Assembly: GCA_965214105.1 (NCBI GenBank) | Contig: OZ243934.1 | Coordinates: 96,374 to 160,373, forward strand | DNA from: Phototrophicaceae bacterium | GTDB taxonomy: Bacteria > Chloroflexota > Anaerolineae > Aggregatilineales > Phototrophicaceae | DNA length: 64,000 nucleotides | Direction: 5' to 3' | Shown here: positions 2,646-54,806 of the stretch, piece by piece | Layout of the letters: each line of letters begins with the position of its first letter | Position numbering within the stretch: the first letter of the stretch is position 1 | The notes under the pieces: generated by a model | What the model saw: only the letters and a program-made list of their open reading frames with translations | The model's database searches: none | Told to the model about the DNA's origin: nothing | Made by a program: the position numbers and the translations under genes

Positions 2646-2679
2646 GGGCAATCGCTTCAACTGTTTTTTCGCCACAGAG
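2646..2679. repeat. solo C-type terminal repeat abutting the IS110 element
   Basis: GGGCAATCGCTTCAACTGTTTTTTCGCCACAGAG is near-identical to the left terminus of the element at 34569-34605. Confidence 0.45.
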
Positions 2680-2738
2680 TTGCTCGCCCGTAATTCGGGG
2701 CAGCCACAAAAACACAACCATGTCGCGAATGCGAGCGT

Positions 2739-3968
2739 TTAGATAGTTTCAGGGAATCGTAACTTCATCCGACTCGGATTATACGGTAAACCGCCGTGGC
2801 GGCCTTGATGATATAAACTGGTCATGGCTTTATTGCAGCACGCGGATACTGATTTGCGAAAGCCTGCTTTAGCTCTATATTGTACTTGCCACTGTTTCAA
2901 TGGGTGCTCATGGTTTCGCAATAACCAATTACGCATTTGCATGAGGAGATGTCGCTTGGCATGATTATTTCCTAAGGCTTTCGAGGTTTTAAGGACTTTC
3001 CCGGCAGAAACAAGAGTGTTCGGGGCGACCCCTAAAGCCTTACACCAAGCTCTTGATGTTGAATATCGTTGCCAAAAGTCCGATCCCATTTCACCAATTA
3101 GTCGTAAAGCTACGAGCCAGTTTACTCCTGGTGTCGTGGACATCCAAGCGATCTGAGGCGCTAGCTCAAAATGTTCGATATGATTTAGTGCTTGTTGTTC
3201 TCGGATTCTAATTCTTTGCTCTTGAACAAGTAGGTCAATTCTTAGCACTTCAAGTTCCTGACGAAGCCAAGTCGGGAGTTCTTCCGTCTTCCCCATTGCC
3301 TCTATCAATCTTGGGCGGCTGCTAGGTGAACCTTTCCAGTGATTCTGAACAATCATTTCCGCCGCGTCCTCTGTCTGAGAAAGCGCTTCCAGAAACGCCC
3401 GGCCTGATTGGGTTCTCAACGTAGTTTCCCGGAAGATATTTATTCCAAACTGCGCAAGTTCTTGATGAACCCGTTGCTTAACTTTAGTTAATGCTTTTCT
3501 GTCGCGGTCATAATTCCGCAAGTTGCTACGAATCTCCATTTGTTGGGCATCTGGAACATTGGAAGTTCTTAGGGGAAAAGTAGCGGCTAGCATGGCTAGA
3601 TTTGTCGCATCCGCCTTATCCGACTTGCCCTCTATTCGAAGTAGTGCCGTGACTTGAGCGGGATTGATGATGTGTACATTCAGACCAAGTTTTCGGCAAG
3701 CGTGATAAAAAGTCAAATGATAATTTGCGGTCGATTCTAGAACTATGAACTCCACTTTGTTCTGTTTGAGCCACTTTGCAGCTGAATTCGCTTTTGCCTG
3801 AGTCTGAGGTATCTGCCGAATTTCCTTTGTCTGTGATTTGAAGTTCAAAAGCGAGACAACGACATAGTCTGCGTCTACATCGCAACCTGCTGTGCAGTCA
3901 TAGCGACCCGCCACAGCGAAATCGCCTTGCGAGATGCGAACGCGGTTATGTTTCGTAGATTGTACCAT
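2739..3968 (-). CDS. IS110 family transposase (DEDD recombinase)
   Basis: 409-aa ORF. N-terminal DEDD-type motifs are GCDVDADYVVV, FIVLESTANYH and GKSDKADA. The C-terminal Transposase_20-like region contains TTPGVNWLVALRLIGEMG. Confidence 0.9.
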   Translation of the reverse strand: MVQSTKHNRVRISQGDFAVAGRYDCTAGCDVDADYVVVSLLNFKSQTKEIRQIPQTQAKANSAAKWLKQNKVEFIVLESTANYHLTFYHACRKLGLNVHIINPAQVTALLRIEGKSDKADATNLAMLAATFPLRTSNVPDAQQMEIRSNLRNYDRDRKALTKVKQRVHQELAQFGINIFRETTLRTQSGRAFLEALSQTEDAAEMIVQNHWKGSPSSRPRLIEAMGKTEELPTWLRQELEVLRIDLLVQEQRIRIREQQALNHIEHFELAPQIAWMSTTPGVNWLVALRLIGEMGSDFWQRYSTSRAWCKALGVAPNTLVSAGKVLKTSKALGNNHAKRHLLMQMRNWLLRNHEHPLKQWQVQYRAKAGFRKSVSACCNKAMTSLYHQGRHGGLPYNPSRMKLRFPETI

Positions 3969-4192
3969 TGAGCCAGTAAAACAGCGGTGCAGAGGCGCTT
4001 TGAGGTTCTAAGACCTACTCTACTTTTGGGCATCAATTAAGTGCCAAGCGGCTCGTCAGTTCGCCTCCGTCCCAAACTCTGTAGGGCATACTTTCTGCCA
4101 AAGACACACGGGGATCGCGCACCGCACCAAAATTCTACAAAAAAACTGCAAGTTGTGCTAGTTTCTGCTTTGATTCATTGAGGGGTTGTGAA
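3969..4192 (-). ncRNA. candidate bridge (guide) RNA region in the IS110 left non-coding end
   Basis: About 224 nt of non-coding sequence lies immediately 5' of the transposase inside the element. In the IS110 subgroup, the bridge RNA is encoded in this position. No fold or covariance model was computed. Confidence 0.25.
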
Positions 4193-4461
4193 AGTAGACA
4201 CAGAGGGTCGCGTAGGGTCGCGGCCCCTTGCCCCAGCAAGCTAGGGAAGGGGAGCTAGGATATTGCAAACTCTATAAACTATGCCAATTCTGCTTGAATC
4301 CAAGTTCACATTAGCGATAATCACGACAAATCAGTGCTCATCCCCCCATTGCAATGGGGGACCGAGGGGGGTAAACCAAAGGGCGATCGCGAATCCTAAA
4401 GTACCGGACAAGCCCTACAACTCAGCACAAGCAAGCCTTATATCATTAATTCACCACTCCC
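4193..4461. repeat. mosaic hairpin-rich MITE-like element, copy A (left part truncated or replaced at the IS110 junction)
   Basis: Contains the 183-bp core (4233-4414), which is 182/183 identical to 39321-39503. It ends with ATTCACCACTCCC (4449-4461), the family terminal repeat. Confidence 0.75.
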
Positions 4462-6757: not shown

Positions 6758-7537
6758 ATGCGAGCCTATGCTACAATACTGGCAGAAAGAATCGTGGTTC
6801 AGGACTGGGCAATGAATGAGCAAAAGAGGGAGCCGCTGGCAAAGCTGGTTTGGCTGGATCCCTTCAGCGGCAAGACCATCGAGTACCCCTTGCACGAGGG
6901 CGACAGCATCAAGATTGGGCGCTCGGCAGTCAACGACATTCAGATCGCCGAAGGGCATGTTTCGCGCGAGCATGCCATCGTCGCCTGCCAAGACGGTGCC
7001 TTCACCGTAGACGATGTCGGCAGCGCCAATGGCACCTTCGTCAACGGCGTACAGATTTATGGCATGAACCCGCTGGCAATTGGCGATGAACTGCACTTGT
7101 TTGTCTCCGTGCTTAAGCTGCGCGAGGCGAATGACGAGGCGCCGCATGATGTCGCCGAGCGCGTATCGGCTGTCAGCGGCGACCGCGCCAGCCTGCGCAT
7201 CACGCGCGGACCACAGCGGGGGCAAATCTTCGCCTTGCTCAAGGAAGAACTGTACATTGGCCGCTCGACGCCCAGCTCCAATTGGGAGATCGCTTTGCAA
7301 GACCCGACGGTTTCCCGCCCCCATGCTTTCTTGGCGAAAGAAGACCAGCAGTGGAAACTCTTTGACCTGGGAAGCATCAACGGCACGGCGGTCAACAGCC
7401 AGCCGATCACCGGCGGCAAGGCGCATTTGCTGCGTGATGGCGATCGCATCATGTTCGGCGGCACTTTGACAGTGTTCCACACCGGGTTCCCCATGCCGCC
7501 TGCCAACGGAGAACGAGACAGAAACGGGAGCTTATGA
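6758..7537 (+). CDS. protein with two FHA domains (start may be ATG at 6812)
   Basis: Two FHA signatures: IKIGRS...VSREHAIV...GSANGTFVNG and LYIGRS...VSRPHAFL...GSINGTAVNS. Confidence 0.85.
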   Translation: MRAYATILAERIVVQDWAMNEQKREPLAKLVWLDPFSGKTIEYPLHEGDSIKIGRSAVNDIQIAEGHVSREHAIVACQDGAFTVDDVGSANGTFVNGVQIYGMNPLAIGDELHLFVSVLKLREANDEAPHDVAERVSAVSGDRASLRITRGPQRGQIFALLKEELYIGRSTPSSNWEIALQDPTVSRPHAFLAKEDQQWKLFDLGSINGTAVNSQPITGGKAHLLRDGDRIMFGGTLTVFHTGFPMPPANGERDRNGSL

Positions 7538-27595: not shown

Positions 27596-27929
27596 GGGAG
27601 TGGTGAATATCGTGGATATGCCCATTTCACAAACCCCACCCCCGGCCCCTCCCGACGGGTCAGTGTCGGCGGGCTGTGTCTACGCGCCCTACGCGACCCC
27701 GATGAATCAGGGAGGGGAGCATTGCTAGCAAATCCTGAGTCCGAGCCTTTACAAACTCCGAAAAAGATACATAGCTCCCCTTCCCTAGCTCGCTGGGGAA
27801 GGGGCTGCGCCGCGTGGACACTGGCCGGTCGGGGATGGGGTCGAAAAACCGAAGACGATCGACCAGTAGCGGACAAGTCTTACAATTCAGCGTGAGCAGG
27901 CTTTATATCCACCGAATTCACCACTCCCC
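27596..27929. repeat. mosaic hairpin-rich MITE-like element, copy B
   Basis: Bounded by GGGAGTGGTGAAT (27596-27608) and ATTCACCACTCCCC (27916-27929). The interior shares the CCCCTTCCCTAGCTNGCTGGGGAAGGGG hairpin and GGTCGGGGATGGGGT modules with the other copies. Confidence 0.75.
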
Positions 27930-34568: not shown

Positions 34569-34859
34569 CCAGGACAATCGCTTCAACTGTTTTTCGCCAC
34601 AGAAACACAGAGAGCGCAGAGATTAATGTCTTTTGTTGGCGATTGTCACATCAATCTTGAAGATGTAGGGGCGACATTGAGTAGAACCAAGTTAGTCATG
34701 CAAATAACAATTCCGCAAGAAAACTCCCCTTCTCTAGCTTGCTGGGGAAGGGACCGGGGGATGGGGTAGAAAAGCGACATTTCTTTACTTGCATGACTTA
34801 CTTATAAGTACTTCTCTGTCTTTGTGGCGAAAAAATTTTGAGGAGATTGCACTGCCTGG
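34569..34859. repeat. C-type MITE-like element with ~45-bp imperfect terminal inverted repeats
   Basis: The left end is CCAGGACAATCGCTTCAACTGTTTTTCGCCACAGAAACACAGAGAG. The reverse complement of the right end is CCAGGCAGTGCAATCTCCTCAAAATTTTTTCGCCACAAAGACAGAGAAG. An internal long dyad (AGTCATGCAA / TTGCATGACT) encloses the CCCCTTC...GGGGAAGGG hairpin. Confidence 0.7.
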
Positions 34860-34924
34860 GGCAGCTAGGAGCGAGCTGACGCTTGAAAATGGCGCGGGAA
34901 GCTGGCATACTGGCGCGCGCTCAA

Positions 34925-34996
34925 GGGCGCGTGGCGCAATGGCAGCGCAGTTGACTTTTAATCAATTGGTTGCAGGTTCGAATCCTGCCGCGCTCA
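34925..34996 (+). tRNA. tRNA-Lys (anticodon UUU)
   Basis: Hand-folded cloverleaf. Acceptor GGGCGCG/CGCGCTC (one G-U). D stem GCGC/GCGC. Anticodon stem GTTGA/TCAAT with loop CTTTTAA. T arm GCAGG-TTCGAAT-CCTGC. Discriminator A. CCA is not encoded. Confidence 0.9.
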
Positions 34997-39057: not shown

Positions 39058-39564
39058 GGGGAGTGCTGAATTATCGATATAAGGCTTGCTCGCGCTGAGT
39101 CGTAGGGGCGATCCTTGGATCGCCCAAAACCCGCTTCTGCAACTGTGGGCGACACAAGTGTCGCCCCTACAAGGCTTGTCCGCTACTGAGTTTTTAATGC
39201 GCATTTCTACCCCATCCCCGACCGCCAGTGTCGGCGGGTCAGTGTCGGCGGGCTGTGTCTACGCGCCCTACGCGACCCCACGCGGCGCAGCCCCTTGCCG
39301 GCGGTCAGTGTCTACGCGACCCAGCAAGCTAGGGAAGGGGAGCTAGGATATTGCAAACTCTATAAACTATGCCAATTCTGCTTGAATCCAAGTTCACATT
39401 AGCGATAATCACGACAAATCAGTGCTCATCCCCCCATTGCAATGGGGGGACCGAGGGGGGTAAACCAAAGGGCGATCGCGAATCCTAAAGTACCGGACAA
39501 GCCTTACATCTAGGTTATCCATATACAGAATTTCGGTCTGCATATCCTCGCATTCACCACTCCC
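39058..39564. repeat. mosaic hairpin-rich MITE-like element, copy D
   Basis: Bounded by GGGGAGTGCTGAAT (39058-39071) and ATTCACCACTCCC (39552-39564). The inner segment 39171-39505 is flanked by AAGGCTTGTCCG/CGGACAAGCCTT. It contains the 183-bp core (39321-39503). Confidence 0.8.
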
Positions 39565-49340: not shown

Positions 49341-49392
49341 ATTGGTTGAATGGTATCCCAAGCGGGCGGCTTCGTCAAATCTGCCGCGGCCA

Positions 49393-49426
49393 GGAGTGGT
49401 GAATACGAGGATATTCCCCACTCCCC
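49393..49426. repeat. minimal hairpin copy of the mosaic-element termini
   Basis: GGAGTGGTGAATACGAGGATATTCCCCACTCCCC consists of the two family termini (GGAGTGGTGAAT / CCACTCC) with only 15 nt between them. Confidence 0.5.
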
Positions 49427-54221: not shown

Positions 54222-54245
54222 GACCATCAATTCCATTTCATAATC

Positions 54246-54709
54246 GGGGAGTGGTGAATTACTGATATAAAGCCTGCTCGCGCTGAGTCGTAGGGGCGAT
54301 CCTTGGATCGCCCAAAATCTGCTTCTGCACTGTGGGCGACACAAGTGTCGCCCCTACAAGGCTTGTCCGGTACTTTAGGATTCGCGATCGCCCTTTGGTT
54401 TACCCCCCTCGGTCCCCCCATTGAAATGGGCGGATGACCACTGATTTGTCGTGATTATCGCTAATGTGAACTTGGATTCAAGCCGAATTGGCATAGTTTA
54501 TAGAGTTTGCAATATCCTAGCTCCCCTTCCCTAGCTTGCTGGGGCAAGGGGCTGCGCCGCGTGGGGTCGCGTAGACACTGACCCGCCGACACTGGCGGTC
54601 GGGGATGGGGTAGAAATGCGCATTAAAAACTCAGTAGCGGACAAGCCTTACATCTAGGTAATCCATATACAGAATTTCGGCCTGCATATCCTCGCATTCA
54701 CCACTCCCC
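54246..54709. repeat. mosaic hairpin-rich MITE-like element, copy E
   Basis: Perfect 14-bp termini GGGGAGTGGTGAAT (54246-54259) and ATTCACCACTCCCC (54696-54709). The inner segment 54358-54649 is flanked by AAGGCTTGTCCG/CGGACAAGCCTT and is inverted relative to copy D. The core is at 54360-54542 (reverse orientation, 4 mismatches vs copy D). Confidence 0.85.
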
Positions 54710-54806
54710 GATAGCAGTTCAAGCCGGACCTGGAGAAAACAAAAACAGGCGAGCCAAGGGACTCGCCTGCCTGTTTCGATGCTGCAATGCTGCTGGCGCG
54801 CTACAT

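Follow-up and report, generated by a model that had tools for sequence, protein, structure and literature searches.

MITEs nested in other repeats are known from bacteria, as in the case of Nezha and related cyanobacterial MITEs, and from plants, as in the nested MITEs of rice and maize. Short segments lying between inverted repeats are also found in invertons, the invertible promoter switches of which fimS and hin are examples and others of which have been found by PhaseFinder. Among insertion sequences, the members of the IS982 family have ends with a conserved 5'-AC-3' and a direct repeat whose length varies within the family (PMC7335449). The terms 'MITE' and 'palindrom' are absent from that review, which does not cover MITE derivatives or hairpin-adjacent targets, and our literature searches brought up no account of MITEs derived from IS982 or of hairpin targeting. 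REP palindromes are targeted by IS1397, ISKpn1, IS621, ISPpu9/10 and ISRm22, and the families reported for REP-targeting IS in a 2006 survey are IS3, IS110, IS4, IS256 and IS5 (PMC1525189). In ISPsy8, an example given there, the insertion interrupts the REP, whose sequence can be reconstituted by joining its two flanking pieces (PMC1525189).

The window, that is the whole stretch of 64,000 nucleotides analyzed here, contains two copies (D and E) of an outer repeat, called O-type, which agree in the order and direction of their outer arms but carry the inner segment in opposite directions. The features of these two copies are:

39059-39564, no strand assigned: copy D, outer O-type repeat, with a 7-bp direct repeat ATGGAAG on both sides
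39172-39504, + strand: inner segment of D, a 333-bp MITE, with TACA at 39168-39171 and 39505-39508; missing at the orthologous locus of sister strain 2
54247-54708, no strand assigned: copy E, outer O-type repeat and host of the nested element, with terminal repeats GGGAGTGGTGAAT at 54247-54259 and 54696-54708
54290-54357, no strand assigned: GC-rich double hairpin in the left arm of E, REP/REPIN-like, GTAGGGGCGA…TCGCCCCTAC, whose 3' edge bears the TACA target
54355-54358, no strand assigned: left copy of the TACA duplication of E, a direct 4-bp repeat
54359-54648, - strand: inner segment of E, a 290-bp MITE with ends AGGCTTGTCCGGTACT… / …AGTAGCGGACAAGCCT, inverted relative to D
54649-54652, no strand assigned: right copy of the TACA duplication of E, a direct 4-bp repeat

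A BLAST search of E against the window, together with direct reading, bore out the colinear arms and the flipped interior reported in the preliminary description. The left arm (E 1-129) aligned with 39058-39187 at 93.1% identity and the right arm (E 388-463) with 39489-39564 at 96.1% identity. The interior aligned in the inverted sense, E 113-298 with 39505-39320 (97.8% identity) and E 329-404 with 39246-39171 (100% identity). Copy A (4219-4461) has the E orientation with respect to its remaining arm, as had been claimed. D and E have a 12-bp inverted repeat, AAGGCTTGTCCG / CGGACAAGCCTT, at each of their two junctions, and the end motif GGCTTGTCCGSTACT occurs eight times in the window with up to 2 mismatches (chance expectation 0.09). 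The 12 bp first described are thus present, but the perfect repeat of the mobile unit measures 11 bp, the twelfth base being part of the TACA duplication.

The ends of the inner segment are near-symmetrical, AGGCTTGTCCG(G/C)TACT. All 11 bp of AGGCTTGTCCG match, and on extension 16 of 17 bp agree, the exception being a G/C difference at position 12. No ORF of at least 100 aa lies inside the inner segment of either D or E, and tblastn gave no match within the window for the IS982-like transposase described below. The segment has the properties of a MITE, being small and without a transposase gene and having terminal inverted repeats, a target duplication with an empty site, multiple dispersed copies and, within its lineage, an autonomous element that shares its ends. 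In the window the dispersed copies are A, D, E and the fragment B; sister strain 2 adds F and G, and relatives are present in many Chloroflexota MAGs. With the known nesting MITEs this element has in common its small size, the absence of coding sequence, the terminal inverted repeats, the short target duplication, the many copies, the presence/absence differences between strains, the insertion in either direction and the ends shared with a transposase-bearing IS. It differs from them in its IS982-like partner, in its occurrence in MAGs of Anaerolineae-type Chloroflexota and in a strong preference for TACA at the edge of a GC-rich hairpin.

The interior of the MITE contains GC-rich short repeats of about 21-22 nt in varying number (GTCGCGTAGACAC… / CGGCGGGTCAGTGTC…; window 39237-39300 versus 54540-54590). 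The inner segment of D is 43 bp longer than that of E, and copy G of strain 2 (L126 8450-8600) has several additional GGGTCGCGTAG units. The fold of the inner segment transcript is only mildly better than those of shuffles (z = -2.3), and an Rfam scan of the window returned one tRNA and no match in the repeats. Exact-pattern scans for TTGCAAACTCTATAAACTATGCC in genome contigs and for TACTTTAGGATTCGCGATCGCCC in genome and metagenome contigs gave no match. The repeat relatives and the protein neighbours belong to Chloroflexota MAGs labelled Anaerolineae, Phototrophicaceae or Aggregatilineales, which ruled out the cyanobacterial origin first suspected from GCGATCGC.

Two sister strains with about 97% DNA identity to the window, both from ENA analysis ERZ24894576, were reached via protein clusters: strain 2 (contig ctg49675c, 2.90 Mb; loci L120, L122, L124 and L126) and strain 3 (contig ctg49636l, 1.01 Mb; loci L123, L125, L127 and L128). 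At the D locus of strain 2 (L120), with flanks 97-98% identical to those of the window, the outer element is present and the inner segment is absent. The empty site reads …GTCGCCCCTACATCTAGG… (also given as …GTGTCGCCCCTACATCTAGG…, …CCCCTACATCTAGG… and …GGGCGACACAAGTGTCGCCCCTACATCTAGGTTATCC…), and the window at the same place reads …GTCGCCCC-TACA-[333 bp]-TACA-TCTAGG…. Since a single 4-mer stands at the empty site, the inner segment is a self-contained unit, spanning 39172-39504 in D and 54359-54648 in E; for an invertible segment there is no reason for an empty site with one copy of the flanking 4-mer. The difference at the D locus probably reflects an insertion in the window strain, although a precise excision in strain 2 would leave an identical empty site. 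A 2-bp duplication (TA or AC) combined with a 12-bp repeat was considered for D and rejected, as the survey of paired copies described below favours a 4-bp TNNA.

The duplicated TACA overlaps the final three bases of a double hairpin placed in the left arm of both D and E (GTAGGGGCGATCC…GTGTCGCCCCTAC), which resembles a REP doublet (DNA fold of -22.7 kcal/mol, z = -6.85). The hairpin motif TCGCCCCTACA was found six times in the window with up to 1 mismatch, against 0.78 expected, and the palindrome is GC-rich, extragenic and repeated and forms a stable hairpin, as REP/REPIN-like palindromes do. The target was surveyed at 75 non-redundant element ends from fetched Chloroflexota loci. The outward 4-mer was TGTA at 29 ends, TACA at 27 and TATA at 6; TACA and TGTA, which are one duplication seen from opposite ends, together account for 56 of the 75. 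Fourteen pairs were listed, two of which (L120 and L122) represent the same place in strain 2, leaving 13 distinct paired copies, and direct 4-bp TNNA repeats (TACA, TGTA, TATA or TAGA) flank 12 of these 13. About 28 of the 75 ends adjoin a hairpin of the form GGGCGA-N(8-10)-TCGCCCC, and the same type of hairpin lies beside insertions in many genomes.

With respect to this hairpin the element is found in both directions. For one type of MITE end, 8 lie next to a hairpin versus 9 that do not, and for the other type the numbers are 4 versus 5; in the full IS either end may adjoin the hairpin (L128 versus L020). The hairpin-proximal end is the 'C-end' in D, the 'G-end' in E and the G-end again in copy G of strain 2. 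No orientation bias exists across genomes. Two-way insertion at one preferred site is normal for this element and fully accounts for D and E. Copies with target duplications also occur elsewhere: 4-bp TNNA repeats flank a dozen paired copies in other genomes, and in L126 of strain 2 the MITE (copy G) occupies another kind of host repeat, one with GGGCAATCGC as terminal repeats, where it is inserted at GTCGCCCTTACA between duplicated TACA. L123 shows the copy G site without an insert. The transposase would sense the hairpin itself, by its structure or by its sequence alone. Like the REP-targeting IS, this element uses GC-rich extragenic palindromes as target and takes part in IS/repeat mosaics. 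It differs from them in being IS982-like, in leaving the palindrome intact with the insertion at its outer edge, and in that a MITE derivative uses the same target.

An autonomous partner was found outside the window. Two loci (L060 and L097) contain 1.1-kb elements with the ends of the MITE, each encoding one transposase of 336 aa, and a third full copy is present in strain 3 (L128). The full IS copies, with one 336-aa ORF each, are:

L128 2905-4025: full IS, 1,121 bp
L060 4021-5140: full IS, 1,120 bp
L097 4799-5919: full IS, 1,121 bp

The 336-aa transposase matches Pfam DDE_Tnp_1 and DDE_Tnp_1_3, and its best NCBIfam match is IS982 (NF033520, E = 5.4e-34) with 117.9 bits, which is just below the 130-bit cut-off. 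As in the IS982 family (PMC7335449), the element is about 1 kb long, has a single DDE transposase gene between terminal inverted repeats and is flanked by a short direct repeat. It differs from the family in the score (117.9 versus 130 bits) and in its ends, which start AGG… as delimited by the empty site in place of the conserved 5'-AC-3'; an AC is placed just outside the IS ends, within the TACA duplication, and the delimitation could matter here.

In strain 3 (L128) the full IS is located inside an O-type element, at …GTGTCGCCCCTACA / AGGCTTGTCCGGTACT…AGTAGCGGACAAGCCT / TACA / TCTAGG… (junctions also written …GTGTCGCCCCTACA / AGGCTTGTCCGGTACTGG…AGTAGCGGACAAGCCT / TACA / TCTAGGTTATGC…). Site, duplication and end sequences are all identical to those of D and E, down to the G/C asymmetry at repeat position 12. 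The shared ends, target and duplication suggest that the IS982-like transposase moves this MITE. The transposase cluster (at least 90% identity) is represented on three contigs, of 2,851,834 bp, 2,897,227 bp (strain 2, with five variants) and 1,013,262 bp (strain 3). The first of these lengths is also the one on record for the proteins of the window, and a cluster-mate (P0411, 95% to P0286) is the putative copy of the source genome. The preliminary description had offered two alternatives, and the nesting of a smaller element into the larger one is the one that gained support, from the orthologous D locus of a sister strain, where the site is empty and a 4-bp duplication can be recognized, and from this autonomous IS, which shares the MITE ends and occupies the same position in an outer element of the same type.

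Another candidate for the autonomous partner, an IS481-like ORF between two matching ends in L056, was rejected because it belongs to a second IS nested in a MITE relative. This relative (L056 2883-4134, from a Phototrophicaceae MAG) has a TGTA duplication and a hairpin on one side, and the IS481-like element nested in it encodes a 315-aa transposase with an rve domain; several nesting levels are seen in this clade.

The inner segment is, with high probability, a MITE inserted in either direction by an IS982-like transposase at a hairpin-adjacent TACA, and D and E are two separate insertions and not two states of a switch. The ends, the duplication, the empty site and the autonomous partner at the same site are direct observations. 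An IS982-like DDE transposase, whose gene lies at another place in the genome, would mobilise the MITE in trans. This enzyme would recognize AGGCTTGTCCG(G/C)TACT ends, and the insertion would make a 4-bp duplication, usually TACA. The preferred target would be the TACA that borders a GC-rich REP-like hairpin on the outside, GGGCGA…TCGCCCC-TACA, and the hairpin being part of the O-type repeat, every copy of this repeat would offer an equal hot spot. The symmetrical ends make insertion possible both ways, so that D and E would represent independent insertions at equivalent sites.

It is conceivable, though very unlikely, that the composite of outer element, hairpin and inner segment spread by means of its outer ends and that the inner part was later reversed in one copy, either because the transposase cut it out and put it back into the same site or because its terminal repeats recombined with each other. 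O-type composites do move as units, as seen for copy B, a clean strain-specific insertion with a MITE fragment, and the junctions are common to D and E. However, the D locus of strain 2 has the outer element and the hairpin without the inner segment, and the inner segment was therefore gained or lost at D separately from the outer element. In addition, divergence is lower in the inner parts than in the arms: the inner segments of D and E differ at 4 of 290 aligned positions (1.4%), plus indels of 22 and 21 bp in the internal short repeats, and the arms differ at 9 of 173 positions (5.2%; Fisher p = 0.02 versus the inner segments). This makes the inner copies younger than the repeats that host them, which agrees with young copies entering older hosts and disagrees with a single composite that spread and then flipped. 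Independent insertions in either direction at this target are, furthermore, directly documented.

The distribution of the copies among the three strains was also compared. Every inner copy examined is strain-specific, with D, E, A and B present only in the window and F and G only in strain 2, and at any given locus the inner segment is found in one strain at most. The further features of the window that enter this comparison are:

4219-4415, + strand: copy A, a truncated MITE with the 'G-end' terminal repeat alone left, followed by TACA at 4416-4419 and then by a 42-nt O-type arm to 4461
27596-27928, no strand assigned: copy B, an O-type composite with a MITE fragment that has one terminal repeat, at 27865-27880
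49392-49425, no strand assigned: 34-bp stub of two O-type terminal repeats (AGGAGTGGTGAAT…ATTCCCCACTCCC), flanked by CGCKGCC

Copy B is absent from both sister strains (L124 and L125, ~7326-7335), which show a clean empty site with a duplication of about 7 bp (CCRGCGC). Given this insertion and the ATGGAAG repeats around D, the outer O-type repeat is itself a recently mobile MITE. The locus of the stub (49392-49425) differs in the three strains, which have the stub (window), a full O-type element with the MITE (strain 2) and two other repeats (strain 3), respectively. At the E locus (window 54222-54806), strain 2 (L122 10796-11646) has a Uma2-family gene of 193 aa at the exact boundaries of E, and in strain 3 (L123 10796-10948) the last 42 nt of the right arm alone remain. 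No obvious target duplication was seen at the boundaries of the outer element E.

Copy F (L122 5649-5990, which is the same as L120 19622-19975) has the flanks TGTA…TACA, inverted instead of direct, and no hairpin between them. These flanks do not fit a simple 4-bp duplication. In copies A (4400-4461) and B (27865-27928) a short arm is joined straight to the MITE after TTGTA. Copies with TGTA…TACA flanks possibly arose by a transposase-mediated adjacent deletion, in which the element would insert beside the hairpin, one of its ends would attack the TACA on the far side and the hairpin would be lost.

The second alternative of the preliminary description, an inverton-like switch in which a site-specific recombinase would flip the segment between the 12-bp repeats and thereby redirect an internal promoter, is a shade less probable than the spread of a composite. 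The likeness to invertons lies in the short segment, its inverted-repeat bounds, the two directions found among the copies and a promoter-like motif inside the segment:

39382-39409, + strand: promoter-like TTGAAT-16-GATAAT in the MITE of D, pointing towards gnd (39727, +)
54454-54481, - strand: the same promoter-like motif in the MITE of E, 9/12 consensus; putative

The motif first described is indeed present in both copies, but a match at 9 of 12 consensus positions is weak and no commoner than in shuffled sequence (1 site versus a shuffle mean of 0.6). The opposite orientations are found at different loci and not at one locus, and the target duplication, the empty site in a sister strain and the autonomous relative at the same site are not expected of an inverton. 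The analysis gave no support to the switch, which is also not required. No invertase gene lies nearby: serine or tyrosine recombinases were absent among the window genes, as judged by Pfam scans and by Pfam lists of orthologues covering most of the remaining genes. The search for an invertase that had been proposed, made here on the window genes, returned solely an IS110-family DEDD transposase (2739-3968, - strand; 147 bits versus a cut-off of 140). This gene is placed beside copy A, and its family is related to the Piv invertase (PMC1525189); it belongs, however, to a multi-copy IS within another repeat type and does not flank the MITE repeats.

The IS110-family ('RNA-guided') IS (2678-4217) is located in a third repeat type (GGGCAATCGC ends), right after CGCCACAGAG, with its other end at …GTAGACACAGAG, and it may target the GGGCAATCGC-type repeat motif. 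At this locus it is shared with strain 3 (L127) and absent in strain 2 (L126), and an identical protein is encoded on 7 contigs. Its place is taken in strain 2 (L126 3797-5476) by two genes, one for an IS1595-type transposase and one for an N6/N4 DNA methylase. The genome is very variable in this region. Another GGGCAATCGC-type mosaic is seen at window 34580-34860, near the tRNA at 34925-34996, with a hairpin whose TGTA/TACA site is unoccupied (34664-34674) and a fragment similar to the MITE interior (34724-34752).

A flip in situ, brought about by cut-and-reinsert of the transposase at the same TACA or by recombination between the terminal repeats and working as a stochastic promoter switch towards, for instance, gnd, is given the same slight chance as the inverton-like switch. 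If it were true, single copies would switch a read-out promoter towards neighbours such as gnd. The least credible explanation is an assembly artefact in which the repeat interior of one locus was assembled in the wrong direction: inverted-end repeats are classic sites of assembly error, but each junction is as in a genuine insertion with identical TACA on both sides, both directions with respect to the hairpin occur in independent assemblies and genomes, and the source contig is 2.85 Mb long. A 15-kb inversion by recombination between D and E was ruled out by the gene order between them, which is colinear in the sister strains.

The novelty of these two separate MITE insertions is modest: it consists of an IS982-like IS and its MITE that aim at the edges of REP-like hairpins, and nested transposition itself is ordinary. 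For genome scans, this locus is a worked example of a false inverton, in which a segment bounded by inverted repeats and found in both directions is a MITE inserted twice; the target duplication and the empty site in a close relative resolve it. The elements are very active, strains of about 97% identity differing by at least five insertions over about 64 kb, and this insertion activity explains the assembly of the mosaic repeats of this genome. To the mobile elements of Anaerolineae-type Chloroflexota are thus added an IS982-like IS and its MITE, with the edge of a REP-like hairpin as their target.
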